Source: a virus
Lineage: Duplodnaviria > Caudoviricetes
IMG/VR virus record: IMGVR_UViG_3300033405_000003
DNA length: 64,000 nucleotides
Strand: one strand, 5' to 3'
A model generated the notes under the pieces. It ran no database searches. It had not been told where the DNA came from and saw only the letters and a list, made by a program, of their open reading frames with translations. Made by a program: the position numbers and the translations under genes. Shown here piece by piece: positions 2,683-51,598 of this stretch. Within the stretch, counting starts at the first letter, position 1, and each line of letters begins with the position of its first letter.

Positions 2683-4263
2683 ATGAACGACACGGCGAAA
2701 AAGACAGCGGACGCGGGGGAGACGCGGGGCGGCAAGGCGCAAGCCGACGTCACGGCCCTGCTCAAGTCGCGGCACACGTTCCTGTGGGTGACCTCGCTCG
2801 AAGAGTCGCGCGTCGAGCGCGCCCTAGTCGAGGCCGCGGGCGCGGCGACCTACAAGGTCGTGCTGTGGGATTGCGAGCAAGGCCTCACGAATCCGGACGG
2901 GACGCCGGTCGAGAAGATCCAGGACCCCGCGGCGGCGCTCGCGTGGCTCGGGGCGACCTCGGGGCGCGTCGCGCTCGTGATGCGCGATCTCCACGCGTGG
3001 GTGCGCGACCCGTCGCTGCTCCGCTCGCTCCGCAACGCGCACCGCAGGATGCAGGGGTTGCCCCGCGGGTCGGCGCGGGCCGTGATCGCCCTCACCCCGT
3101 CCGGCGAGGTCCCCCCGGATCTCCGCGGGTGCGCAACGGTCCTGGACTGGCCCCTCCCGGACCGCGCCGAGGTCGCCGCGCTCCTCAAAGACACGCTCGG
3201 CGCGCTCGCCGAGGGCACCCCGGCCAAGGCGCTCGCGGGCGACGCTTTCGAGGCCGCGGTGGACGCGGCCGTGGGGCTCTCGGCGAGCGAGGCCGAAAAT
3301 TGCTACTCGCTCTCGCTCGTGACCCGCAAGGCGATCGACGCGGGCCGGATCGCCGACGACAAGCGGCGGATCATCTCCCGGATCCCCGGCCTCACGTGGG
3401 CCAAGCCGGAGCCCCGCGGCCTGGACGCGGTCGGCGGGCTGGATCTCCTCAAGTCGTGGCTCCGGGAGCGGCGCTCCGCGTTCGGGGTCCGCGCCCGCGC
3501 GTACGGCCTGCCCTCCCCGAAAGGGGCGCTCCTCGTCGGCGTGCCCGGGGGCGGCAAATCGCTCACGGCCAAGGCGCTCGCGTCCTACTTCGAGGTCCCG
3601 CTGATCCGCTGCGACGTCGGCGCGATGCGCTCGAAATTCGTGGGCGACTCCGAGGCCAACGTGCGGCGCATGCTGCAAACGGTCGAGTCGCTCGGCCGGT
3701 GCGTGCTTTGGCTCGACGAAATGGAGAAGGCGCTCGCGGGCGGGTCCGGCCCGCAGGGCGACGGCGGGGTCGCGGCGGACGCGCTCGGAACGATCCTTTC
3801 GTGGATGCAAGATCGCACGTGCGAGGCTTTCGTGCTCGCGACCGCGAACGACGTCCGCGCCCTCCCCCCGGAGTTGCTCCGCAAGGGCCGTTTCGACGAA
3901 GTGTGGTTCGTGGACCTCCCCACGACGGCCGAGCGCGAGGCCGTGCTCCGGGCGGCGCTCTCCGAGCGCGGGCGCGACGCGAGCGAGATCGAGGTGCGCG
4001 AGGTCGCGGAAGCGACCGACGGGTTCGTGGGCGCGGAGCTTGCCGCGCTCGTGCCCGACGCGATGTTCCGCGCGTTCGCGGACAACGAGCGCGCCGTCTC
4101 GACGGCGGACCTCTTGCACGCCGCGCGGCAAGTCACCCCGCTCTCGAAAACGGCGAACAAGCGGATCGAAGACTTGCGCGACTGGGCAAAGGGCCGCGCG
4201 CGCCCCGCATCATCCCCCGAAACCACCACGAGCGGCGCCGCGGGGCGCGCGCTCGACATCTAG
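2683..4263 (+). CDS. AAA+ ATPase, Ycf46-like (degenerate N-terminal AAA plus active C-terminal AAA)
   Basis: Walker A GVPGGGKS, Walker B LWLDEMEK, SRH ATANDVRALPPELLRKGRFDE. Confidence 0.9.
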   Translation: MNDTAKKTADAGETRGGKAQADVTALLKSRHTFLWVTSLEESRVERALVEAAGAATYKVVLWDCEQGLTNPDGTPVEKIQDPAAALAWLGATSGRVALVMRDLHAWVRDPSLLRSLRNAHRRMQGLPRGSARAVIALTPSGEVPPDLRGCATVLDWPLPDRAEVAALLKDTLGALAEGTPAKALAGDAFEAAVDAAVGLSASEAENCYSLSLVTRKAIDAGRIADDKRRIISRIPGLTWAKPEPRGLDAVGGLDLLKSWLRERRSAFGVRARAYGLPSPKGALLVGVPGGGKSLTAKALASYFEVPLIRCDVGAMRSKFVGDSEANVRRMLQTVESLGRCVLWLDEMEKALAGGSGPQGDGGVAADALGTILSWMQDRTCEAFVLATANDVRALPPELLRKGRFDEVWFVDLPTTAEREAVLRAALSERGRDASEIEVREVAEATDGFVGAELAALVPDAMFRAFADNERAVSTADLLHAARQVTPLSKTANKRIEDLRDWAKGRARPASSPETTTSGAAGRALDI

Positions 4264-4285: not shown

Positions 4286-5182
4286 ATGGTCACCACGAAA
4301 ACCACCGTCACGATCAAGCCCGGAATCCTCGTGTCGCTCAAGTCGAGCGTCACGGGCGGGGTCACCTACACGCGGACGACGCTCGACGCGCCGAAGCTCC
4401 CCGAGTCGATCGCCGCCGAGCCCGCGGACGTCGCCGCGAACCGCCGCGACGTCGAGCGTTGGGAGACGACGAAGATCGTGGAGGACGCGGCCGAGCACAA
4501 GTGCGCGGAGGACGCGCGCAAAAAGGCGACCGGCGAGATCCGCAAGCTCTGCATCAAGTCGGCGTTCGGGCTGATCTGCCCGCTCGCGTACGAGGCCGAG
4601 CTTACCGCCGCGATCGAGCGCGCCCGCGCGACGGCGACCGGCTTCAACGAGACCGCGCGTTACACGCACGTCAGCCTGCACGTGCTCCGCGGCCACATCG
4701 CGTCGAGCGACGAGGAGGCCGTCAAGGCCATCGGGGGCGAGGTGCGCGGGCTCATCGCGCAAATGGACAGCGCGATCGGCAAGCTCGACCCGGAGGCGAT
4801 CCGGGACGCCGCGAGCAAGGCGCAATCGGTCGCCGCGATGCTCGGCGATGAGCAGTCCGCGGTCGTGAGCGAGGCGGTCAAGGCGGCCCGTGCGGCGGCC
4901 CGCACGATCGCCAAGCGCGTGACCAAGGACGGCGAGATCGCGGCCGTCGTGCTCGCCGACATCAAGCGCGGCGCGATCGAGAAAGCCCGCTTCGCGTTCC
5001 TCGACCTCGACGACGCGGCGCCCGTGGCGCCGGACTCGGAGCAGGCCCCCGCCGCGAATGTGCAGCGCGTCGCCGGGCTCGACCTCGACGCGGACGGCGA
5101 CGAGGTGCCCGGCGAGGTGGAGGCCGCGAGCGGCGCGGAGCCCATGACGGCGTTGATCTTCCCCGCGAGCGAGGTGCAGTGA
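4286..5182 (+). CDS. Helical protein of the AAA operon (DUF3150-like)
   Basis: SD GAGG before ATG; helical content, position and LDLD tail; family call tentative. Confidence 0.6.
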   Translation: MVTTKTTVTIKPGILVSLKSSVTGGVTYTRTTLDAPKLPESIAAEPADVAANRRDVERWETTKIVEDAAEHKCAEDARKKATGEIRKLCIKSAFGLICPLAYEAELTAAIERARATATGFNETARYTHVSLHVLRGHIASSDEEAVKAIGGEVRGLIAQMDSAIGKLDPEAIRDAASKAQSVAAMLGDEQSAVVSEAVKAARAAARTIAKRVTKDGEIAAVVLADIKRGAIEKARFAFLDLDDAAPVAPDSEQAPAANVQRVAGLDLDADGDEVPGEVEAASGAEPMTALIFPASEVQ

Positions 5183-5514
5183 TGGCTTGCTTCACGATGA
5201 CCAAGCCCAACCAGACGCTCGTGGAGCGCTCGAAGGAGGTGGCGGCGTCGCTCGCGCGGCTCCGCCGCTACATCGCCGCGGGGCAGGTGCGGATCGTGAT
5301 CGCGCCGAACGGCGCGGTCGCGCTCGACGGGTGGAAGGACCGCGACGACGTGACGGACGTGTGCGCGGTCCGCACGCTCACGGCCGAGGGATCGTGGGAG
5401 CTTCGGCAAGCGGTCGCCAAGGCCGAGGCCATGACGGGGCGCCGCGTGAACCTGCAAGCCACGGCCGCGGGCTGGCACTCGCACGACGGCGGCAAGACCT
5501 GGGGAAAGCACTGA
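5182..5514 (+). CDS. Small phage protein ending HSHDGGKTWGKH
   Basis: Coupled to upstream gene; host-like codon usage. Confidence 0.7.
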   Translation: MACFTMTKPNQTLVERSKEVAASLARLRRYIAAGQVRIVIAPNGAVALDGWKDRDDVTDVCAVRTLTAEGSWELRQAVAKAEAMTGRRVNLQATAAGWHSHDGGKTWGKH

Positions 5515-5521
5515 AAGGAGC

Positions 5522-5791
5522 ATGACCATGGGCGAGCAAGAGAAAGGATCTTTCGTTTGGTGCTTCAACACCGAAGAGGGCGCGCGTGCGTGCGTCGCCC
5601 TCATGGCGAGCGGCGACAACGTCGAGCGCTGGACGGTGTCGCACGGGACGGACGGCGATGGCTGGGACCTCCGCGTGGAGCTGGACGAGTACGGTGTCGC
5701 TTGGGCGCGCGGCTTCGCTTGCGCCTTCGCGCGGCTCACGCCGAACGAGGCTAGCAGCGACCTCGTGCACGCCACGAAGGGCGCATCATGA
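5522..5791 (+). CDS. Hypothetical protein
   Basis: AGGAG SD and codon usage. Confidence 0.65.
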   Translation: MTMGEQEKGSFVWCFNTEEGARACVALMASGDNVERWTVSHGTDGDGWDLRVELDEYGVAWARGFACAFARLTPNEASSDLVHATKGAS

Positions 5792-5933
5792 GTCCGTGCA
5801 GCAACCCCTACTGCAAGGAGGGCGTTTGTCACGGGCCGCGCTCCCCGGAGCCCCACGCGTGCAAGGCGTGTATGGCCCGCGAGTCGCTCGCGGCGGCCGT
5901 CCTATACGTGTCGAGATTGAAAGGTGGTGTGTC

Positions 5934-6458
5934 ATGAGCCTTGAAGAAGGAATTTTCATCCTGTCGCGCACGATCACGAACCCCCGGCCAGACCGCCGCA
6001 CGCGCGACCAATGGCAGAAGGCCAACGAATGGGAGAAGGGGATGCGGTTCGTGATCCGGCGCGCGCACTGGATCGAGCGAGACCGCGCCGAGGCCATGGC
6101 GACCGTGCCGGGGGAGCGGCGCGTATTCGAGCTTCGCTACCTGGGCGAGCGCTACGCCGACTACGTGAACCTCTTCGAGAAGGACGGCATCGTCGAGCAT
6201 GCGCGGGGCAACTTCCCCGACGAAGCGGAGCAGGCCATGCTCGTGCTCGTGACGGCGCTCGTGCGCTCGACCGACCGCGACGACGAGCTTGATTGGATCT
6301 TCCGCTCGCGCGGCGAGCGCATGGCGGACATGGCGGACGGCGTGCTCTATCGCCTCGTCGATCGCGGGACGGTGAAGCTCGACGACATCAGGGCCGCGCT
6401 CGCGGAATGGGACGCCGAGGAAGCGGCGAAAGAAGAGGCCGCGAAGGCCAAGCCATAG
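5934..6458 (+). CDS. Hypothetical protein
   Basis: AGGTGG SD before ATG; codon usage. Confidence 0.65.
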   Translation: MSLEEGIFILSRTITNPRPDRRTRDQWQKANEWEKGMRFVIRRAHWIERDRAEAMATVPGERRVFELRYLGERYADYVNLFEKDGIVEHARGNFPDEAEQAMLVLVTALVRSTDRDDELDWIFRSRGERMADMADGVLYRLVDRGTVKLDDIRAALAEWDAEEAAKEEAAKAKP

Positions 6459-6506
6459 CATGATCGCATGGGGACATGAGAAGATGAGCACGGAGGTCAA
6501 AACGCC

Positions 6507-6782
6507 ATGGGAAAGAAAAAGCAGATCGACGAGCGCGCGCTCCTCGCGCGCGTCAACAGGGCGCTCGCCAAAGACGGGGAGCGCGTCATCCGCTCGCGGC
6601 CGATCCGCGGGAAGTTCCACTACGGCAAGCCCGTCTACCCGCCGGAGGGGCGCTTCTACCGGGTGTCCGGCAAGGAGCGCGTCATGGTCGCCCGCGACGT
6701 CGACCTGTGGGAGCTGGCCAAAAAGTTCGATCTCATCAAGCCGTGGGAGGACTACGTGCCGGTCACCCCAGACGGCCCGTGA
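6507..6782 (+). CDS. Small basic protein, paralog of 13655-13945
   Basis: ERALLARVNRALAKD...VDLWELAK pattern. Confidence 0.7.
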   Translation: MGKKKQIDERALLARVNRALAKDGERVIRSRPIRGKFHYGKPVYPPEGRFYRVSGKERVMVARDVDLWELAKKFDLIKPWEDYVPVTPDGP

Positions 6783-6833
6783 CGCCGCGTTCACGGACCG
6801 CCCGAGGGGCGCGTAGTTCCGCGCGGTTGGCGC

Positions 6834-6879
6834 TGGATCGGCGCGTGCAGATAAAAAGTCCACATGGCCATGAGGCCAA
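6834..6879 (+). promoter_or_regulatory. sigma54-like promoter (TGGATCGGCGCGTGCA) followed by 8-bp boxes AAGTCCAC ATGGCCAT GAGGCCAA
   Basis: GG-N10-GC at 6835-6848; boxes at 6856-6879. Confidence 0.6.
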
Positions 6880-6905
6880 AACTAGGGAAAAGAAAGGGCA
6901 TCATC

Positions 6906-7151
6906 ATGAGCAAGGTAGAGAACGAGCTGGCGATGGCGGTGGAGCGGCTCAGCGTCGCGGCTGCGAACGTGACGCTGATCGCGTGCGTGCTCGTGGAGAC
7001 GCGGCGCGCGGACGTCTTCGACGCGCTCCGCTTGGCGTGCGACGAGATGCGCGAGGCGGAAGGCGCCGTGTGCGAGGCCGAGCAGGCGCTCGTGGTGAAC
7101 ATGATCGGCGAGCGGATCGAGGGCGCCGGGGAAGGCGGGATGGTGTCATGA
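6906..7151 (+). CDS. Hypothetical protein
   Basis: First gene after promoter; ATGA overlap with next gene. Confidence 0.6.
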   Translation: MSKVENELAMAVERLSVAAANVTLIACVLVETRRADVFDALRLACDEMREAEGAVCEAEQALVVNMIGERIEGAGEGGMVS

Positions 7152-7357
7152 CGAACGGAACCGAGAAGACGATCATGGTGTGCGCGGTGTGCGGCTCGGA
7201 GAACGTCCAGCACGCCATGTGGGTGTCGGTCAACACGGGTGACGTGCACGACGATTTCGGATCGTGGTGCAGCGGCGACAACTCGTGGTGCGAGGATTGC
7301 GAGGAGCACACCGACCTCGTCGAGAAGCCTGCGGCGGTAGTAGGGGTGTCGCCGTGA
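7148..7357 (+). CDS. Small zinc-ribbon protein
   Basis: CAVCGS...WCEDC. Confidence 0.65.
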   Translation: MTNGTEKTIMVCAVCGSENVQHAMWVSVNTGDVHDDFGSWCSGDNSWCEDCEEHTDLVEKPAAVVGVSP

Positions 7358-7581
7358 AGCGCGTTTTTGTGAGCAATATCCCCGTTCACGCGTATGTGGA
7401 CGGTTGGGTCGAGGTGCCGGACGGCACGGACCCCGAAGCATTGAACGACGCCATCGCGACGGCGCTCTGCGAGCGCGGTTATTCGGCGGAGTCTTCGACG
7501 CTGGCGGTGGGCGAGACTGACCTCGACGAAGGGATCATCAAGGGCGGCTGGGAGTTCACGACGCCGTTGGAGAAGGTGTAG
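7354..7581 (+). CDS. Hypothetical protein
   Basis: GTGA overlap; codon usage. Confidence 0.55.
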   Translation: MKRVFVSNIPVHAYVDGWVEVPDGTDPEALNDAIATALCERGYSAESSTLAVGETDLDEGIIKGGWEFTTPLEKV

Positions 7582-14009: not shown

Positions 14010-15986
14010 ATGAAAACGGCGAAGAAAGACACGAAGACGGGGGCGCGAGTCGCGGCGCTCGGCATGCTCGGCGGGGCGATCCTGCTTGGGCTCGCGCTTG
14101 GGACGGGGCTCCTCGGCCCGGCGGGGGAGGCCGCCGACGGCTTGCTCTCGGGGCTCGCGGGCGCGGTCGCGTGGCTCCTGCCCGCCGAGATGCTGCTCTG
14201 CGGGGCCGCGCTCGCGCGAGGCCGGGGCTTCTCCCTCTTCCGCCTGCTCGGCGACGGCGTGCTCGCGCTGATCGCGGCTGCGCTGATCCACCTCACGTGG
14301 GATGGGAGCGGCGGGCTCGTCGGCGAGGGCGTCGGCGAGGCCGCGCGCGGCGCGTTCACGACCACGGGGGCGTTCATCGTGGGGTTGCTCCTCGCGGGGC
14401 TCGTCCTCGCCGAGCGCGTGAAGGCGGTGGCCCTCGCGGAGCGCATCGAGGGGATGAGCCTCGGCGGCGCGCTCAGCTCTCTCCGCGCCCGGCGGGTGCC
14501 GGTCCTCCCGGATCACGAGCCGGCGAGCCCGGCGCCGATCTCCGCGTGGACGCGGTACGTGACCGGCGAGTCCCAGGGCGTCGAGACCGAGGACACCGAG
14601 GACGAGGACGCGGGCGGGTTCGTCGCCACCGAGGAAGACGACGAGGACGCCGGCGTGTTCGTCGCCACGGCCGCAGCGGGCGCCGAGGACGACACGTGGG
14701 TGGACGCCCGTGCGGACGGCGCGCGCAACCAAGACGGGCGCCGCCCGAGCGTCGTCTGCACGTTCGAGCTGCCGCCCACGAAGCTTCTCGGCTACACCGA
14801 GAAGGAGAGGCCCGCGGCCAGCGACGCGCAGCTCGACGCGGAGGCGCGCCTGCTCGCGTCCACGCTCGGCGCCTACGACGTCACGGCGAAGATCGAGCAC
14901 GCCACGCACGGCCCGACGGTGACGACGTTCGAGGCGTCGCTCGCGGCGGGCACGAAGCTCTCGAAGGTCATCGGCCTGGCGGACGACCTCTCGCTCACCT
15001 TCGGGCGCAAGGTCCGCGTCGTCCCGTCGCGGCCCGGCTGCGTCGGGTTCGAGGTCGCCAACGAGGCGCGCGCGACGGTCGGGCTCCGCGAGCTTCTGGA
15101 GAGCGAGGGCTTCCGCGCGGCCAAGGAGAAGATGTCCCTGCCGGTCGTGCTCGGCCGCGACGTGCGCGGCGAGGGCGTGTACGCCGACCTCGCGGAGACG
15201 CCGCACGTGCTGATGGCGGGTGCGACGGGCGCCGGCAAGAGCGTGGGGCTCAACGTGGTGCTCGCGTCGCTCCTCTACTCGAAGACTCCCGAGGAGCTTC
15301 GGCTCGTGATGATCGACCCGAAGGTGGTGGAGCTTCAGCCGTACGCCCGGATCCCGCACATGCTCCTGCCCGTCGTGACGGACGCGAGCAAGGCGGTGGC
15401 GGCGCTCCACTGGGTCGCGACCGAGATGGAGAGCCGCTACCAGCTCCTCGCGAAGGCGGGCTGCAAGAACATTGCGTCCTACAACGCCAAATGCAAAGCC
15501 GCGGACAAGCTCCCGCACGTCGTGATCGTCGTCGACGAGTACGCCGACCTCTACGCCTCGCAGGGCAAGGCGGTCGACGCCCTGATCTCGCGCCTCGCGC
15601 AGAAGGCCCGCGCGGCCGGGATGCACATGATCCTCGCGACGCAGCGCCCGAGCGTGGACGTCGTCACGGGCACCATCAAGGCGAACTTCCCGACGCGCGT
15701 CGCGTTCCGCGTGGCGCAGCGGGTCGACAGCCGCGTGGTGCTCGACGAGCAAGGCGCGGAGCAGCTCACGGGGCGCGGCGACATGCTCGTCAAGATGGGT
15801 GGCTCCGACGCCGCCCTCCGCGTGCAGTGCCCGATGATCACCGAGGCCGAGATCGAGGGCGTAACGGCGCACCTCGCGGCCCAGGGCGCGCCCGACTACG
15901 ACGCGGGCGTGCTCGACCCGGCGCCGGCGGAGCCCAAGGAACCGAAGGCGCGCAAGGGCAGCAAGAAAGAGCGCGTGTGGTCGTGA
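14010..15986 (+). CDS. ftsK: FtsK/SpoIIIE DNA translocase with N-terminal membrane region and motor domain, no gamma domain
   Basis: PHVLMAGATGAGKS, MIDPKVVEL, VVDEYADL, LAQKARAAGMHMILATQRPSVDV, GAEQLTGRGDML. Confidence 0.92.
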   Translation: MKTAKKDTKTGARVAALGMLGGAILLGLALGTGLLGPAGEAADGLLSGLAGAVAWLLPAEMLLCGAALARGRGFSLFRLLGDGVLALIAAALIHLTWDGSGGLVGEGVGEAARGAFTTTGAFIVGLLLAGLVLAERVKAVALAERIEGMSLGGALSSLRARRVPVLPDHEPASPAPISAWTRYVTGESQGVETEDTEDEDAGGFVATEEDDEDAGVFVATAAAGAEDDTWVDARADGARNQDGRRPSVVCTFELPPTKLLGYTEKERPAASDAQLDAEARLLASTLGAYDVTAKIEHATHGPTVTTFEASLAAGTKLSKVIGLADDLSLTFGRKVRVVPSRPGCVGFEVANEARATVGLRELLESEGFRAAKEKMSLPVVLGRDVRGEGVYADLAETPHVLMAGATGAGKSVGLNVVLASLLYSKTPEELRLVMIDPKVVELQPYARIPHMLLPVVTDASKAVAALHWVATEMESRYQLLAKAGCKNIASYNAKCKAADKLPHVVIVVDEYADLYASQGKAVDALISRLAQKARAAGMHMILATQRPSVDVVTGTIKANFPTRVAFRVAQRVDSRVVLDEQGAEQLTGRGDMLVKMGGSDAALRVQCPMITEAEIEGVTAHLAAQGAPDYDAGVLDPAPAEPKEPKARKGSKKERVWS

Positions 15987-20536: not shown

Positions 20537-21364
20537 TTGACCAAACCGTTCGCGAAAGCAGCCGGCGGGAAGACGAAGCTCGTCCCGACGATCCTGGCAC
20601 ACGTCCCGGCGTTCACGGGGCTCTACCACGAGCCGTTCGTGGGCGGCGGCGCCGTGTTCCTGGCCCTCCACGGCAAGCTCGGCCCGGCGCGTGCGGGCAG
20701 GACGTGGGCGATCCTGAACGACGACAACCCGGAGCTTATGAACGCATACTCCGTGGTGAAGACGAACACGCAAGCATTGGTCCGTAGATTGCAATCTATG
20801 GCAAAGAAGCATTCGAAAGAAACGTATTATTCAATCAGGGGAAAGGAAGAAGAGGAGCCCGTCGCCCGCGCGGCGCGGTTCCTGTACCTCAACAAGACCT
20901 GCTTCAACGGGCTCTACCGCGTGAACGCCGAGGGCAAGTTCAACGTGCCGATCGGCTCGTACAAGAACCCATCGATCGTCGAGCCCGAGATCATGGAGCA
21001 CTGGCGCGGCGCGCTCGCGGGCGCGAAGCTCTACTCCGAGGACTTCTCCTACAGGCTCGCGGAGGCCAAGAAGGACGACCTCGTGTACGCGGACCCGCCG
21101 TACCTGCCGCGGAGCAAGACGGCAGACTTCACGTCGTACACGGCGAACAAATTCGCGATGAAGGACCACGAGAGGCTTGCCAACGCGCTCGCTAATGTGC
21201 ATAAGCGTGGCGCTAAATTCATATGCAGCCAAGGCGACTCGGAGACAATCCGGGCCCTTTACAAGCAATTCATGATCATACCCGTATCGGTGAAGCACAT
21301 GGTGGGCGCGAAGGCGTCCTCGCGGGTGGCGGTGCGAGAACTACTCATCAAGAACTTCGACTGA
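20537..21364 (+). CDS. dam: Dam-family (D12 class) N6-adenine DNA methyltransferase
   Basis: AGGKTKL, EPFVGGGAVF, YLNKTCFNGLYRVN, YADPPY; TTG start. Confidence 0.9.
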   Translation: MTKPFAKAAGGKTKLVPTILAHVPAFTGLYHEPFVGGGAVFLALHGKLGPARAGRTWAILNDDNPELMNAYSVVKTNTQALVRRLQSMAKKHSKETYYSIRGKEEEEPVARAARFLYLNKTCFNGLYRVNAEGKFNVPIGSYKNPSIVEPEIMEHWRGALAGAKLYSEDFSYRLAEAKKDDLVYADPPYLPRSKTADFTSYTANKFAMKDHERLANALANVHKRGAKFICSQGDSETIRALYKQFMIIPVSVKHMVGAKASSRVAVRELLIKNFD

Positions 21365-21879: not shown

Positions 21880-22398
21880 ATGGCAGAGAAAGAGCTGACG
21901 ATCGCGCAGGCGCTGCGCAAGATCAAAGACTTGAAGGGCAAGATCGCGCGCCATAGCCAGAACGCGCAGGCGAGCGTGACGCACAAGACGAAGGACGAGC
22001 CCGCCTACGCCTTCGGCGCCGAGTGGGAGAAGGCGACGACGCTCGTCGACGAGATGATCGATCTCCAGACGCGTGTCGGGACCGCGAACGCGGGCACGAC
22101 CTTCGACTACGAGGGCAAGCGCCGCTCGCTGCTCTGGTGTACGAAGAAGCTCGCGGAGCTGAAGGGCGCGATCGCGTGGCACCAGGGCCTCCAGGTCCGC
22201 GCGAAGGGCAAGACGACCGAGGACGAGATGCAGTGGCAGCGCGTGGCGGGCGGCGGCGCGGAGCACGTCCGCGCCGAGGTGGAGTACACGTGCCACCTGC
22301 CCGAGGCCGAGAGGGCCGCGCGCGTGCAGGCGCTCGAGCAGAAGTTCGCCGAGCTGAACGACCTCGTCGAGACGATGAACCACCGCACGGCCATCTGA
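21880..22398 (+). CDS. DIP1984-like coiled-coil protein
   Basis: LTIAQALRKIKDLKGKI...DEPAY...MIDLQTRVGTAN...LNDLVETMNHRT matches the recalled family pattern. Confidence 0.6.
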   Translation: MAEKELTIAQALRKIKDLKGKIARHSQNAQASVTHKTKDEPAYAFGAEWEKATTLVDEMIDLQTRVGTANAGTTFDYEGKRRSLLWCTKKLAELKGAIAWHQGLQVRAKGKTTEDEMQWQRVAGGGAEHVRAEVEYTCHLPEAERAARVQALEQKFAELNDLVETMNHRTAI

Positions 22399-22415
22399 GC
22401 CGCGCGGTGGAAGGC

Positions 22416-22640
22416 TCCGGGGACGGGAGCCGAGAGGAGAACCGGAAGGAAGAGCAACTCTAGGCTCACCACCTGGATACAGCAGGGAGCGATCCCCGCC
22501 ATACCGCCTATATCGGCACCGGCACCCGCGGTCAGCGGTCAGACGCAGCGAGCATTGAGCACCAAGCCAGCAGCGATCAGGCGCCAGCAGTCAGCAAAAG
22601 CCTCTCCCACCCGATTCGAATCGAAGTTCCCGTCCCCGGA
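22416..22640 (+). ncRNA. Putative structured ncRNA or 3' RNA element with long closing stem and AG(C) heptamer array
   Basis: TCCGGGGACGGGA (22416-28) pairs perfectly with TCCCGTCCCCGGA (22628-40); GGGA-GCGA-TCCC hairpin; AG every 7 nt from 22551 to 22593. Confidence 0.65.
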
Positions 22641-22661
22641 CACTCCCAAAGAGAAGACGAC

Positions 22662-23057
22662 ATGGCAGCAGACACGACGATGACCATCCCCCTCGACCCC
22701 ACGACCGAGCGCGAGTTCGGCCGCACGGAGTTCGCGCCCGAGGAGCGCGAGCGGATGCTCGCGCGCATGACCGAGATCAAGGACTCGTTCTACGCCGCGG
22801 CGCAGCGCGCCGGCCACCACCAGTTCCTCGAGTTCGCGGGCCTCATGTCCGAGTACATCAAGGCGTGCGAGCGGATGCACCGGGCCGGCGTTGACTTCGG
22901 CACGGTCGACGTCGATCTCAAGGAGCACGAGGCCGAGTACATCGCGGAGAAGCTCGACTGCATCTTCGGGCAGGCGCTCGTGGACAAGAAGACGCGCGCG
23001 GCGTTCCTCGGCGCCCTGGCGGCGAAAGGCGGCTGGCCCGACAAGAAGATCTGGTGA
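22662..23057 (+). CDS. Hypothetical phage protein
   Basis: HQFLEFAGLMSEYIKAC...YIAEKLDCIFG. Confidence 0.7.
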   Translation: MAADTTMTIPLDPTTEREFGRTEFAPEERERMLARMTEIKDSFYAAAQRAGHHQFLEFAGLMSEYIKACERMHRAGVDFGTVDVDLKEHEAEYIAEKLDCIFGQALVDKKTRAAFLGALAAKGGWPDKKIW

Positions 23058-24795: not shown

Positions 24796-25209
24796 ATGAA
24801 CGACGTCGAGACGCTGAACAGGCTGAGGGACGAGGTCTACGCGAACGCGAAGGCGCACGGGTTCCACGACGTCGGCCGGACCGTAGGCGACGGGCTCATG
24901 CTCATCTGCACCGAGGCCTCGGAGGCGTTCGAGGCGTACCGCGAGGGCGGCAAGCCCGCCGAGATGCGCTACGAGTGCAAGCACCCGGACGGCGACTGCG
25001 CCGAGGACGCGTCGGAGCGCTGCCCGGGCGCGGACGACCGCGCGGCGTTCCTCCACAAGCCCGTGGGCGTGCCGAGCGAGATCGCCGACATCATCATCCG
25101 CTGCCTCGACTTCGCAGGGGAGCACGGCATCGACATCGGCCGGGCGGTGCGCCAGAAGATGGAGTTCAACCGGACGCGGCCGTTCAAGCACGGCGGCAAG
25201 ACGCTCTGA
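24796..25209 (+). CDS. MazG-like NTP pyrophosphohydrolase
   Basis: LMLICTEASEAFEAYR, SEIADIIIRCLD, KMEFNRTRPFKHGGK. Confidence 0.85.
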   Translation: MNDVETLNRLRDEVYANAKAHGFHDVGRTVGDGLMLICTEASEAFEAYREGGKPAEMRYECKHPDGDCAEDASERCPGADDRAAFLHKPVGVPSEIADIIIRCLDFAGEHGIDIGRAVRQKMEFNRTRPFKHGGKTL

Positions 25210-25211
25210 GC

Positions 25212-27071
25212 ATGGCCGTGGTCCGCGTCGAGCTTGGGGCGGGTCAAGGCGGCGAGAAGCTCGCGCGCTTCACGCCGCTCTCCGGCAGCCCGGGGCTCTT
25301 CCGGCGGCTGCTCGGGCCCTACGGCCTGCGGGCCGGGAAACCGGCCGCCTACATCGTCAGGCTCGACGCGGCCCTCTCGGCGTGCGGGGCGCTCCAGAAA
25401 CGCGGCGTCGAGCTGCGCGCCAAGAGCGACGTGCCGAAGGTCATCGCGGCGTCGGCGTGGCGGTGCAAGGCCCAAGACCTCTACCCGTACCAGCGCGTCG
25501 GGGCCGAGTACCTGCACTCGCGCCGGCGCGCGATCCTGGCCGACCAGATGGGCACCGGCAAGACGCCGCAGGCCCTCTCCGCGCTCGACCCGAAAAAGGG
25601 CGCGCTGATCGTGGTCCCCTCCGTCGTGTGCAACAACTGGCTCAAGGAAGCCACGCGCTGGCGCAAGGACCTCGCGGTCCGGATCTGGAAGGAGCCGTAC
25701 CCCGTCTTCCCCGAGCCCGGCGAAGCGATCATCGTGACGTACCCGAAGCTCCCGTACGAGAAGCTCGAGAGGCGCTCGCGGTGCCCGTGGTGCGGGGCGC
25801 TCTCGGTCGTGCCGCTCGACGACGAGGAGATGGCGGCGCTCGCCGGCAAGCAGGTCGCCTGGACGGACAAATGCGACCCCGGGCGCGGCGGCAAATGCGC
25901 GAAGCCCGACGGCACCATCGCGGCGCGCAAGTTCGCGCAGCAGGGCAACGCGTGGCCGGAGTGGGTGTGGGTCGGCGAGGCTCCCAAGCACCCCGTGCAG
26001 CTCGTGGTCGACGAGGGGCACTACTGCAAGAACAAGAACGCGCAGCGGACCATCGCGGTGCGGACCATCGCGGCGGCGTGCGCCGCGGGCGACGCCGGGC
26101 GCGGATCGAGCGTGTGGATCCTGACGGGGACGCCGCTCCTCAACGAGCCGCCCGAGATCTGGTCGCTCTGCCAGCTCTTCCCCGGGCAGACCGGGAAGTT
26201 CGACGACGGCGCGTGGGACACCTTCGGGGGCTGGAACGCGTTCCTCGAGATGTTCGGGGGGCGGAAGCTCGTCGTCGGGGGCCAGGCCCGCGGGTACGAG
26301 TGGACCGGCGACCCGACGCCCGCGGCGCGGGACCACCTAGGCTCGGTGATGCTCCGGCGCATGCGCGACGACGTCCTGCCGGACCTGCCGAAGAAGACGC
26401 GCCGCTACGTGGACGTCGCCATCCCGAAGCGGATGCTCTCGAAGGACGCGATGCTCACGGACAACCTGCTCCTGCTCTTCCGGGAGTGGTCCGACGACAA
26501 GGTGCTCGCGGAGTGCGCCGTGGGCGGGGCGCTCTCGATGCTCCGCAAGGAGCTTGCGGCGCTGAAGCTCGAGACGCTCCTCAAGCTCGTGAGGGAGTAC
26601 GAGGAGAACGCCGAGCCCGTCGTCGCGTTCTCGTACCACCGGGACCCGGTCGAGGCGCTCGGCGCGCGCAGGGGCTGGGCGTGCATCACGGGCGGCACGC
26701 CGGACGGCGAGCGCGCGGCGCTCGTGGAGCAGTTCCAGAAGGGCCAGCTCCGCGGGCTCGCGGGCACCATCGGCGCGATGGGCGTGGGGGTCACGCTCAC
26801 GAGGGCCGCGAACGTGCTCTTCCTCGACCGGGACTTCGTGCCGGCGAACAACCTCCAGGCCGAGGACCGGCTCGTGCGCATCTCGCAGACCCGCGGCGTG
26901 ATCGTCACCATCCTGAACGCCCTGCACCCCATCGACGAGCGCGTGGCGATCATCCTCGAGAAGAAGGAGCGGCTGCTCGAGGCGATGGAGTTGTCCGAGG
27001 ACAAGACCGCGGTCCCGCCACCGCCGCCGAACCCGAACGGCCCCCTCTTCGACCGGGGAGCAGAGACATGA
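25212..27071 (+). CDS. SNF2-family helicase/ATPase
   Basis: LYPYQ, LADQMGTGKT, VVDEGHY, LTGTP, MLRR, QAEDR. Confidence 0.9.
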   Translation: MAVVRVELGAGQGGEKLARFTPLSGSPGLFRRLLGPYGLRAGKPAAYIVRLDAALSACGALQKRGVELRAKSDVPKVIAASAWRCKAQDLYPYQRVGAEYLHSRRRAILADQMGTGKTPQALSALDPKKGALIVVPSVVCNNWLKEATRWRKDLAVRIWKEPYPVFPEPGEAIIVTYPKLPYEKLERRSRCPWCGALSVVPLDDEEMAALAGKQVAWTDKCDPGRGGKCAKPDGTIAARKFAQQGNAWPEWVWVGEAPKHPVQLVVDEGHYCKNKNAQRTIAVRTIAAACAAGDAGRGSSVWILTGTPLLNEPPEIWSLCQLFPGQTGKFDDGAWDTFGGWNAFLEMFGGRKLVVGGQARGYEWTGDPTPAARDHLGSVMLRRMRDDVLPDLPKKTRRYVDVAIPKRMLSKDAMLTDNLLLLFREWSDDKVLAECAVGGALSMLRKELAALKLETLLKLVREYEENAEPVVAFSYHRDPVEALGARRGWACITGGTPDGERAALVEQFQKGQLRGLAGTIGAMGVGVTLTRAANVLFLDRDFVPANNLQAEDRLVRISQTRGVIVTILNALHPIDERVAIILEKKERLLEAMELSEDKTAVPPPPPNPNGPLFDRGAET

Positions 27072-49673: not shown

Positions 49674-50174
49674 ATGCTCAAGAAGATCACGAAGGTCCTC
49701 GCCGTCGTCCTCGGCCTCTCGATCGTCCCCGCCGCCGGCGCGTGCTCGGCGTGGACGAGTTTCCTCCAGAACCCAGCGGGCGCGATCTCGACGCTGCTCC
49801 AGTACGTTCAGATCTTCCTCCAGACGGCAGCGGCGATCTGGGCGATCATCTTCCCGCTCATCCCCGCCGCGTCCCAGGCGCAGGCCCAGGCCGAATACGA
49901 GAACGCCGTCTACACGATCTCGCAGGGCGAGGCCGCGCTCGAGGACGCCATGAAGGCCGCAGCCGCGGCCGGGCAATCGAGCCCGAACTTCTCGCAGCTC
50001 ATCGCGAACATCCAGGGCGCGGTCGACGCGCTCGCCGGCATCATCAGCAAGTGGGGCGGAGGCAGCGCCCTCGGAGACGCGGGCACGCTCGCGACCGTCT
50101 CGCCCCGCGGGGCCACGGCCGCGCAGATGGCCGAGCTTGCGCGCGAGCAGGGCGTCATCCACGCGTGGAAATAA
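49674..50174 (+). CDS. Putative lipoprotein
   Basis: MLKKITK, hydrophobic stretch and AGAC lipobox. Confidence 0.65.
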   Translation: MLKKITKVLAVVLGLSIVPAAGACSAWTSFLQNPAGAISTLLQYVQIFLQTAAAIWAIIFPLIPAASQAQAQAEYENAVYTISQGEAALEDAMKAAAAAGQSSPNFSQLIANIQGAVDALAGIISKWGGGSALGDAGTLATVSPRGATAAQMAELAREQGVIHAWK

Positions 50175-50212
50175 TCTCGCGCATAGACCGTGATTCAGAC
50201 CGAGGAGAGACC

Positions 50213-51598
50213 ATGCACAGGTGCCACAACTACCACCGCATCCACCCGCGCCTGCGCGGCGTCCGCCTCGGGGCCCGGGTCGCGAGGACGAGCTTCCCGA
50301 GCGGCACGCTCTCGCCCGCCGAGATCCTGACCGCGTACGGCTTCAAGCAGAACCAATTCGCCGGGATGGCGAAGACGCCGATCAAGCTCGGCGTGGGCAG
50401 CCTGGGCGGCGCGGTGGTGCAGGCCGACATCGACAACAGCGTCGCGGCGTGGGGGATGCTCGCCCCGAAGATCACCGTGCGCACCGTTGGCGGCGCGACG
50501 CAGGACCCGACTGATGCGGACTCCTGCACGGAGAACATGCTCGATCTTCTACCCACGATGGCCTTCACGTGGTGGTGGCTCACCGGCACCGCGGCGGATC
50601 TCACGATCTGCTTCGGGCCGAACGCGTCGAACGGCATGACGCTCGTGACGAACGATCTCGTCGCGGCAGGGTGCAAGGTCGCGAGCTGGTCGTGGGGCTC
50701 GGCCGCGGACCAGTGGGATCCGACGGAGCGCGCGGCGCTCGCCGCGGCGTTCCAAGCCGCAGCGCAAGCGGGCGTCACGTTCTGCGCGGCGGCCGGCGAC
50801 AACTCGATCGATGACGGCACGTCGTCCCCGTCGGCCGACTACCCGTGCTCGGACCCGTGCGTCTGGGCGGTGGGCGGCACGAACCTCCAGATCAACCCGG
50901 ACGGGAGCCGCGCCGGCGAGTCGGCGTGGGGCGACGGCCAGCCCGGCGACGAGGGCGGTGGCGGAGGATACGACCCGACCGTGCCTGTGCCGCCATACCA
51001 GCAGGGCGTGATCCCGGCGAGCGCCCCAGGTCGCGGCGTCCCCGACACCGCGGCCAACGCGGACCCGAATTCGGGGTGGCAGATGTCGGCCAACGGGAGC
51101 TGGACGGTCGTCGGGGGAACGAGCGCGTCCTCGCCGTTCACGGCCGCGCTCATCGCCGTCGCGAAGGCCGTCGGCGGAAACGCCGCGGGCCTCCTCACGC
51201 CCGCCATCTACGCGTCGCGCGCGACCGCGTTGAGCGACATCACGACAGGCTCGAACGGCGACCCGGCGGTTCCGGGGTGGGACCCGGCGACAGGACTCGG
51301 CTCGCCGAACGATGGTGGATTCATCGCGGCGCTCGGGAGCAGCGCCCCGGCGCCACCCACGCCGAACCCGCCGCCACCGAACCCGCCGCCGGCGCCGAAT
51401 CCACCGCCAGCCCCGAACCCGCCGCCAGCCCCGAACCCGCCGCCAGCGGCAAGCGTCCACAAGTACCAGGCGGTCGCATGGGCAGCGGAGGGCATCGCCC
51501 AGAACTGGCGTCCCGGCGCATCGCTCGCGAACGCGCAGAACTGGGCCGGCCAAGGACTCGCGCAGCGCTGGCCGCAAGGAGGCAAGAAGAAACCGTGA
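50213..51598 (+). CDS. S53 (sedolisin/kumamolisin) serine-carboxyl peptidase with Pro-rich linker
   Basis: ENMLD, SWSWG, AAGDN, AVGGT, RGVPD, GGTSASSP, DITTGSNG, GWDPATGLGSP. Confidence 0.9.
   Translation: MHRCHNYHRIHPRLRGVRLGARVARTSFPSGTLSPAEILTAYGFKQNQFAGMAKTPIKLGVGSLGGAVVQADIDNSVAAWGMLAPKITVRTVGGATQDPTDADSCTENMLDLLPTMAFTWWWLTGTAADLTICFGPNASNGMTLVTNDLVAAGCKVASWSWGSAADQWDPTERAALAAAFQAAAQAGVTFCAAAGDNSIDDGTSSPSADYPCSDPCVWAVGGTNLQINPDGSRAGESAWGDGQPGDEGGGGGYDPTVPVPPYQQGVIPASAPGRGVPDTAANADPNSGWQMSANGSWTVVGGTSASSPFTAALIAVAKAVGGNAAGLLTPAIYASRATALSDITTGSNGDPAVPGWDPATGLGSPNDGGFIAALGSSAPAPPTPNPPPPNPPPAPNPPPAPNPPPAPNPPPAASVHKYQAVAWAAEGIAQNWRPGASLANAQNWAGQGLAQRWPQGGKKKP
51355..51450. repeat. Coding repeats of about 18 bp (PNPPPA)
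   Basis: CCGAACCCGCCGCCAGCC-like units. Confidence 0.8.

Follow-up and report, generated by a model that had tools for sequence, protein, structure and literature searches.

The locus and its features

The window analysed here, a 64-kb (64,000-nucleotide) stretch of the viral record IMGVR_UViG_3300033405_000003 (Duplodnaviria; Caudoviricetes), has a GC content of 68 % and is densely packed with genes on the plus strand. Within it, a gene for a small helical protein that resembles the DIP1984/DUF6847 family is followed by a gap of 263 base pairs (bp), at positions 22399-22661, that is free of genes; the next open reading frame (ORF) occupies positions 22662-23057. A first-pass annotation, made from the sequence without database searches, had drawn attention to a gene-free gap of about 260 bp at this point, had described within it a stem-closed RNA carrying AG(C) at a period of 7 nucleotides (nt), and had proposed that the upstream protein oligomerises on that array; all of the elements that it described were found where it had placed them, and the observation itself is confirmed. 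The features of the gene and of the gap, in order of position, are as follows.

21880-22398, plus strand: gene for a 172-amino-acid (aa) DIP1984/DUF6847-like helical protein, the proposed RNA partner (GC content at third codon positions, 0.95)
22380-22410, plus strand: P0, a hairpin spanning the stop codon, in which the NHRT codons of the conserved C-terminus are paired with bases immediately beyond the stop (inverted repeat of 12 nt, 92 % complementary)
22416-22640, plus strand: core of a structured non-coding RNA, about 225 nt long and bounded by the outermost bases of its closing stem (covariance model R1, 218 bits)
22416-22430, plus strand: 5' arm of the closing stem, P1 (stem search and covariation)
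22434-22455, plus strand: 5' strand of an irregular stem extension, P1a and P2 (helices 2-7, 75-97 % paired, all with compensatory changes)
22460-22476, plus strand: P3, a small hairpin that varies in sequence and that some relatives lack or have replaced (minimum-energy fold)
22482-22499, plus strand: P4, a hairpin with a GCGA (GNRA) loop (helices 8-9, 77-82 % paired)
22514-22525, plus strand: two CGGCAC units (reading of the sequence)
22525-22545, plus strand: rail block A, made up of a CG heptad (22527) and two AG heptads (22534, 22541) (the same three-unit block is found in relatives)
22549-22597, plus strand: rail block B, seven heptads of consensus U-N-A-G-C-N-N (kept in 29 loci)
22600-22622, plus strand: 3' strand of P1a and P2, including most of a palindrome (alignment mapped to window coordinates)
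22626-22640, plus strand: 3' arm of P1, followed in most relatives by a T-rich tail that the window lacks

A coding interpretation of the gap was considered and rejected, since a 7-nt periodicity, together with insertions and deletions whose lengths are not multiples of three, is incompatible with a reading frame. The element also appears to be new to the catalogues: no Rfam 15 family, RAGATH-27 (RF03100) included, matches it, either in this region of the window (E-values up to 10) or in 12 related loci (E up to 1), and a scan of the whole window returned no tRNA gene and no Rfam family at the gathering score. A large survey of viral structured RNAs (PMC10690425) mentions no such motif in its text, and its unnamed candidates could include it. 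A DNA search, together with a tblastn search with the protein, returned no match in a phage collection, and a plasmid collection likewise yielded none. Phage T5 (AY543070) gave neither a PF20935 match (E up to 1) nor a run of six AG at a 7-nt pitch, although a relative more distant than these two tests detect, or a unit of another type, could be present there.

A rod-closed RNA with two small hairpins

The closing stem of the element, P1, comprises 15 bp in the window, including one G-U pair, and corresponds to the 13-bp stem, extendable to 15, that had been claimed for this site; the claimed start 18 nt after the stop codon is likewise borne out, 17 nt lying between the stop and P1. Beyond P1 the two strands continue, by way of internal loops, into the irregular extension formed by P1a and P2, in which positions 22434-22445 pair with 22611-22622 and positions 22452-22455 pair with 22600-22604. 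Two details of the earlier description are altered by this arrangement. The palindrome CGATTCGAATCG is present at 22612-22623, but rather than folding into a local hairpin it serves as the 3' strand of the extended stem, where it pairs with 22434-22445; and in place of an inner pairing between GAGAGG and CCTCTC, covariation backs a pairing of GAGC (22452-22455) with GCCUC (22600-22604).

The resulting rod closes a loop of 144 nt, which contains two small hairpins and a single-stranded rail of approximately 100 nt. Among close relatives, P3 displays a paired change, from GG/CC to AA/UU in the locus designated L005. The GNRA hairpin described by the first-pass annotation was recovered as P4, with its GCGA loop at 22489-22492 and with compensatory changes in relatives (for example, from GCAGGGA to CATGGG). 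The fold energy of the gap is modestly better than that of shuffled sequences (z of -2.9), and an alignment scan for pseudoknots and other long-range helices recovered P1 alone. RNAalifold drew four further helices within the rail (numbered 10-13); they consist of GC/GC pairings between units, and were regarded as artefacts.

The place that is occupied in the window by the two CGGCAC units is taken in relatives by a run of (C)GAY triplets or hexamers, such as CGATATCGACAC and ACGACGACGAC. Units of this type, at a pitch of 3 or 6 nt, stand just 5' of the heptads in several copies, for example CGGCACCGGCAC in the window, ACGACGACGAC in L027 and GATGACGATGGCGA in L019; the run may represent a second binding site or a site of nucleation.

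The heptad rail

In block B of the rail, AG begins at positions 22551, 22558, 22565, 22572, 22579, 22586 and 22593, corresponding to an exact 7-nt pitch, and blocks A and B are set apart in the window by a phase shift of 3 nt. The first unit of block A is either AG or CG in relatives. A run of seven AG at this pitch occurs once in the 64 kb, both strands considered, the next-best run having three units, and when the gap was simulated 20,000 times with a first-order Markov model a seven-unit run never arose. The periodic array claimed by the earlier annotation is thus present as seven exact units, with three more upstream, and lies far beyond chance expectation. When 190 units drawn from the related loci described below are combined, the heptad reads U (56 %)-N-A (100 %)-G (100 %)-C (63 %)-N-N, with spacers that vary freely; the restriction of conservation in the rail to AG, C and U fits a ligand that reads short motifs at periodic intervals.

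Conservation across related loci

Homologs of the gene were collected from public assemblies, metagenomes of the Joint Genome Institute, IMG/VR and genome bins, and yielded 29 distinct loci with enough downstream sequence for analysis, several of them classed as viral, in which protein identity ranges from 30 to 84 % and GC content from 30 to 68 %. In all 29, the gene is followed by a gene-free stretch that carries a stem-closed element and a heptad rail 130-320 nt past the stop codon, and the covariation of the closing stem is visible in the R1 alignment. The order of parts is constant, and comprises a (C)GAY run, three heptads, a linker of variable length (about +1 to 13 nt), seven heptads and the 3' stem strand. 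A chain of five or more AG in phase is found in 23 of the 29 downstream regions and in 3 of 570 control windows from the same loci; where such a chain is lacking, the strict phase is broken by single-base insertions. Small departures from the pattern include a last unit with AC or AU in place of AG (a few loci) and a hairpin that takes the place of two units (L025).

The covariance model R1, built from seven close sequences (alignment A4), gave exactly one full-length match per locus in 19 loci, always at the expected place. It gave no significant match in seven of the loci searched (L017, L018, L019, L020, L026, L033 and L034), and these were judged, together with L036, L037 and L161-L163, which were outside the R1 search, by an explicit search for stem and array and by eye; the closing stems of L017, L018 and L034 were identified by eye, the automatic search having chosen the wrong arms. 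When applied to three whole IMG/VR records, R1 returned one match in each, beside the gene. The three include a 74-kb phage genome that is complete and carries terminal repeats, and the module is therefore not confined to very large genomes.

In the R1 alignment, which was fitted to the model and to that extent favours the structure, 91.1 % of cells fall in standard pairs, compared with 30-49 % after a shift of the 3' side by 1-3 columns, and double changes are found in 39 of 46 pairs, values that were reached in none of 500 shuffles. The closing stem (helix 1) displays compensatory changes in 14 of its 16 pairs, with 98.6 % of cells paired. A model-free stem search had earlier found closing stems of 10-23 bp, unrelated in sequence, at these loci. 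The stems contain 62 G-U pairs as compared with 12 A-C pairs, an excess from which it follows that the folded molecule is the plus-strand transcript. The RNA is therefore real, conserved and structured, and lies on the strand of the gene, and the earlier claim of a structured RNA with a heptad AG(C) array in the gap is supported.

An all-against-all comparison of ORFs over the loci identified the DIP1984-like gene as the only one common to every clade; across clades just this gene and the RNA are shared, and the neighbouring genes differ. The D12 methyltransferase gene upstream, and, downstream, the genes for a 190-210-aa protein and an SNF2 helicase, show synteny in no lineage other than that of the window. 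This distribution, as read from sequence comparison, supports the view of gene and RNA as a conserved module of two parts. The three features by which this uncatalogued class is recognised (a DIP1984-like gene directly 5' on the same strand, a covarying closing stem, and a single-stranded row of UNAGC units at 7-nt pitch) are all present in the window.

The DIP1984-like protein

The upstream protein had been assigned to DIP1984 by its motif; the fold implied by that assignment was upheld, and curated membership was not. The NCBIfam model DIP1984_fam (NF038048) matches the protein over its full length (E 1.1e-5) with 25.7 bits, below its cut-off of 70, and the Pfam model DUF6847 (PF20935) does so (E 0.0035) with 17.8 bits, below its cut-off of 27. 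Because both scores fall under the curated cut-offs, the protein is filed as a distant relative of DIP1984/DUF6847, and is not a member by the curated test; its homologs P0037, P0140 and P0057 pass the Pfam cut-off, with 33.7, 32.3 and 27.8 bits. There are 37 close homologs, and a profile of this branch gathers 671 representative clusters. Members of the DIP1984/DUF6847 family have no known function and are often annotated as 'septicolysin'; no publication on DIP1984, DUF6847 or 3KDQ was found that connects them with an RNA.

An AlphaFold2 model computed from 37 sequences (predicted local distance difference test, pLDDT, of 93.8) has a single strong structural match, the Corynebacterium diphtheriae protein of unknown function 3KDQ. 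Foldseek aligned the two with an E-value of 3.3e-4 and template-modelling (TM) scores of 0.75 and 0.84, and VIA-align with a Z score of 14.6, a root-mean-square deviation of 2.6 A and 149 of 152 residues aligned, the next match having a Z of 8.9. The window protein thus displays, over its full length, the fold of the solved family member, a helical bundle with two beta hairpins. The nearest clusters in the ESM Atlas are named 'DIP1984 family protein' and 'putative Septicolysin', and are accompanied by clusters of viral hypothetical proteins.

A symmetric homodimer was predicted with a score of 0.73, the best of three controls scoring 0.00, and in three runs the contacts agreed to at least 98 % with a pLDDT of at least 90 for the partner chain. 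Of 30 proteins whose solved structures are pairs of one chain, 20 pass the mark used for such predictions; of 23 with single-chain structures, 1 passes. The success of the prediction may in part reflect memory of the solved relative 3KDQ, which has four chains. The predicted interface is formed by residues 32-38 and 134-140. Two motifs, TIxQALRRIKxLKG at the N-terminus and LNDxVExxNHRT at the C-terminus, are invariant down to 30 % identity and lie outside that interface; since the N- and C-terminal helices are antiparallel, the two should sit side by side, and together they represent the likely candidate for an RNA-binding surface, a patch with R13, K16 and K19 in its N-terminal part and N167, H168 and T170 in its C-terminal part. 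A 2H-phosphoesterase-like site, composed of two HxT motifs, was considered and dropped because H35 is not conserved in distant homologs.

Ends of the transcript

The RNA is probably made from the transcript of the gene itself, because the interval from stop codon to P1 is so short and no promoter was detected. The P0 hairpin, which overlaps the end of the gene, is found again in most relatives, where its arms carry compensatory or wobble substitutions (CACCG/CGGTG has become CATCG/CGATG in L007, for example), and may act as a processing site or as a stabiliser of the 3' end of the mRNA. At the other end of the element, a T-rich tail directly 3' of P1 is found in 16 of 23 relatives, and in L017 and L036 a separate canonical terminator is located just past the element.

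A putative protein-RNA particle

The reading that is judged somewhat better than even is that the gene at 21880-22398 and the RNA at 22416-22640 constitute a two-part module that makes a protein-RNA particle, in which the upstream protein reads the rail. A particle in which several copies of the protein read the units is proposed because the gene and RNA travel together, because a rod joins the two RNA ends, because the motif recurs at a fixed pitch, and because the number of units is fixed. In such a scheme the RNA would be co-transcribed with the gene and cut free close to the P0 hairpin, its 3' end being set, in most relatives, by P1 and the U-tail. The rod (P1, P1a and P2) ties the two ends together and holds out the rail of about 100 nt with its 3 + 7 units, and copies of the DIP1984-like protein, probably as symmetric dimers, would dock on this rail, each binding site reading one A-G(C), much as NAG triplets are read by HutP and TRAP. 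That the protein binds the array is inferred solely from their strict linkage. A number of units that stays at 3 + 7 suggests that the stoichiometry of the particle is defined, which would not be expected of an open-ended sponge. The interpretation offered by the first-pass annotation is in this respect partly supported, in that the module, the fold and the structured RNA have stood, and a toxin with an RNA antitoxin, which it had also entertained, has not.

If such a particle exists, it would provide the first functional clue to a widespread domain of unknown function, one that extends from the 671 representative clusters of this branch to the wider DUF6847/'septicolysin' family in bacteria, and whose crystal structure has been unexplained since 2009. 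It would also add a new class of structured RNA to the biology of phages, and would represent a third independent case, after TRAP and HutP, of proteins that read periodic NAG triplets on RNA, with a bearing on how such recognition evolves; the pattern of conservation, in which A-G(C) alone is fixed across ten units, is unusually legible in this regard.

Several points weigh against a particle. We know of no RNA-binding activity for the DIP1984 fold, and neither Pfam nor PHROGs gives an RNA-binding annotation for it. No promoter- or terminator-like site was detected in the window, and the U-tail of most relatives is missing after P1 there. The 3 + 7 split is unlike that expected for a simple symmetric oligomer of dimers, and co-transcription could by itself account for the strict linkage of gene and RNA.

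Comparison with known systems

TRAP, which binds the trp leader in Bacillus, is a ring of beta sheets that reads 11 (G/U)AG triplets separated by spacers of 2-3 nt, the number of sites matching that of subunits. The window element resembles its target in presenting many evenly spaced AG-type motifs on single-stranded RNA, and departs from it in having 4-nt spacers and 10 units, so that the TRAP arrangement is not reproduced; no TRAP-family match was found for the upstream protein or for the few neighbouring genes that were scanned.

A closer parallel is provided by the hut terminator of Bacillus subtilis, in which HutP recognises XAG triplets with 4-nt spacers, and hence at a 7-nt pitch, the triplets being grouped in two blocks with a linker between them, and in which the HutP gene lies directly upstream of its RNA and one triplet is read by each subunit of the oligomer (PMC2425495). 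The window shares with that system the XAG motifs and 4-nt spacers in blocks (here of three and seven), as well as the position of the regulator or DIP1984-like gene directly upstream of the RNA. The differences are equally specific: HutP has another fold and forms a hexamer of D3 symmetry with 3 + 3 sites, whereas the protein described here has the DIP1984 fold and is predicted to form a dimer, with 3 + 7 sites; the hut sites extend across the terminator stem, whereas those in the window lie in the loop of a rod-tied RNA of 225 nt; and the window element is accompanied by no conserved downstream operon, no terminator-like site in the window and no known ligand. No HutP chain is listed among the structural matches of the protein, and Pfam returned no HutP match for it. 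HutP and TRAP are accordingly best regarded as analogues and not as family, since the fold is unrelated, the sites are in a loop rather than across a terminator, and there is no conserved operon; by that analogy HutP is the closest worked example.

The overall architecture is also reminiscent of Y RNAs and their partner Ro60, in which a structured RNA of about 100-250 nt, with its ends paired in a long stem, is encoded beside its protein partner; no match of sequence or model to these RNAs was found in Rfam, and the heptad rail has no counterpart in them.

Alternative explanations

The conservation of AG(C) alone along the rail could be explained by any protein that reads NAG, and the RNA might therefore act in trans as a decoy or sponge for another such protein, either of the host or of the same element, with the upstream gene linked to it through co-transcription, or because its product serves as chaperone or stabiliser and not as reader of the rail. 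Host factors are known to be titrated by some phage RNAs, and the absence of a known RNA-binding role for the DIP1984 fold would be accommodated by such a scheme; against it stands the persistence of the pairing between gene and RNA down to 30 % protein identity and across GC contents of 30-68 %, while all other neighbours change, together with a fixed number of units (3 + 7) that would be unusual for a sponge and the lack of any TRAP- or HutP-family match in a scan of a few neighbouring genes. This explanation is considered unlikely, yet it is the most probable of the alternatives discussed here. Nearly as much can be said for a switch in cis of the HutP or TRAP type, in which P1 and the U-tail would form an intrinsic terminator that separates the regulator gene from those further downstream, and the protein, bound to the NAG rail, would set the balance between termination and read-through, or would autoregulate its own mRNA. 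The order of parts is that of hut, with a regulator gene, an intergenic stem with XAG at 7-nt pitch, and further genes (PMC2425495); the T-rich tail follows P1 directly in the majority of relatives noted above, and the stop codon is covered by the P0 hairpin. Against such a switch, the downstream genes are unrelated between clades; an RNase P RNA comes next in L034, and tRNA genes are found within about 1 kb in L027 and L033. The canonical terminators of L017 and L036 stand after the element, the window copy has no U-tail, the rail lies in the loop and not in the arms of P1, so that its occupation would not obviously open that stem, and a rod of about 30 bp joining both ends is typical of stable RNAs. 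Regulation in cis is thus also held to be improbable.

The remaining possibilities carry far less weight. A type III-like system, in which the repeats of an RNA antitoxin neutralise a toxic protein, would suit a small two-part module of protein and repeat RNA on mobile elements, and 'septicolysin'-annotated relatives are said to reside on small Acinetobacter plasmids beside toxin-antitoxin genes. The systems that resemble ToxIN, however, have repeats of about 36 nt upstream of an endoribonuclease gene, an arrangement not found here; the window has 7-nt units, embedded in a larger fold rather than in a processed tandem array, and its RNA stands 3' and not 5' of the gene. No PADLOC match and no nuclease fold or motif was found, and the toxin and RNA-antitoxin reading of the first-pass annotation, unsupported on these counts, is regarded as very improbable. 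Replication origins too display short periodic repeats flanked by an inverted repeat, and a DNA-level element (origin iterons, a packaging site or a recombination site) might be envisaged on that ground; the preponderance of G-U over A-C pairs in the stems (62 and 12) indicates one transcribed strand, the compensatory changes preserve pairing and not sequence, a pitch of 7 bp is off the helical repeat of DNA, and the element always has the orientation of the gene, leaving this explanation with scarcely any credence. A more elaborate form of the particle may also be imagined, a machine of fixed stoichiometry carried by phages and mobile elements, in which DIP1984-fold dimers occupy a ten-site rail and each 7-nt U-N-A-G unit mimics the anticodon loop, likewise of 7 nt, of a leucine tRNA, where U33 precedes the NAG anticodon. 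Such a particle would act in trans, attracting as decoy or platform those host enzymes by which anticodon loops are cut or modified. This idea, which is a long shot, would tie the module to the tRNA genes, RNase P RNA and PTH2 gene that are found nearby in some relatives.

Neighbouring genes and related observations

Elsewhere in the window, the following genes were identified, and a family match is absent for most of the other ORFs.

14010-15986: gene for an FtsK/SpoIIIE-type translocase
20537-21364: gene for a D12 N6-adenine methyltransferase
24975-27071: gene for an SNF2-type helicase
49742-51598: gene for a subtilase-like protease

The region downstream of the RNA varies from locus to locus, and consists in the window of small ORFs. 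In L034, an AT-rich relative on an IMG/VR contig of 52 kb, the heptad RNA is followed, within a few dozen bases of its end, by the start of an RNase P RNA (positions 3301-3639, 254 bits) that is complete and of bacterial class A; clusters of three tRNA genes are found within about 1 kb downstream in L027 and L033; and a PTH2 gene and an HNH gene follow the RNA on another contig. The tRNA genes, RNase P RNA and PTH2 gene near relatives of the window element hint, from gene content, at a connection with RNA or translation biology.

A different neighbourhood was encountered in L004, a distant relative on a 198-kb contig of unknown classification. Directly 3' of its heptad RNA, at positions 4985-7537, is a gene whose 850-aa product is homologous to the major vault protein of eukaryotes (MVP_shoulder, E 1.3e-32; Vault_3, E 3.6e-9), and upstream of the DIP1984-like gene, at positions 714-2600, is a gene for a protein with a VWA domain. 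The presence of a vault-like shell protein beside a non-coding RNA is unusual.

A reciprocal scan of viral contigs for four AGC-N4 units followed by AG found a DIP1984-like ORF in none of 80 loci among the matches listed; those matches included pure tandem repeats of 7-mers and arrays of CAAGCNN, neither of which supports or weakens the linkage of gene and RNA. The CAAGCNN heptads occur 8-15 in a row, sometimes in two blocks, for example in L059 (positions 6246-6354, minus strand) and L082 (positions 942-1006), with no DIP1984-like ORF nearby, and these arrays may represent a different periodic-repeat element, of RNA or of DNA.

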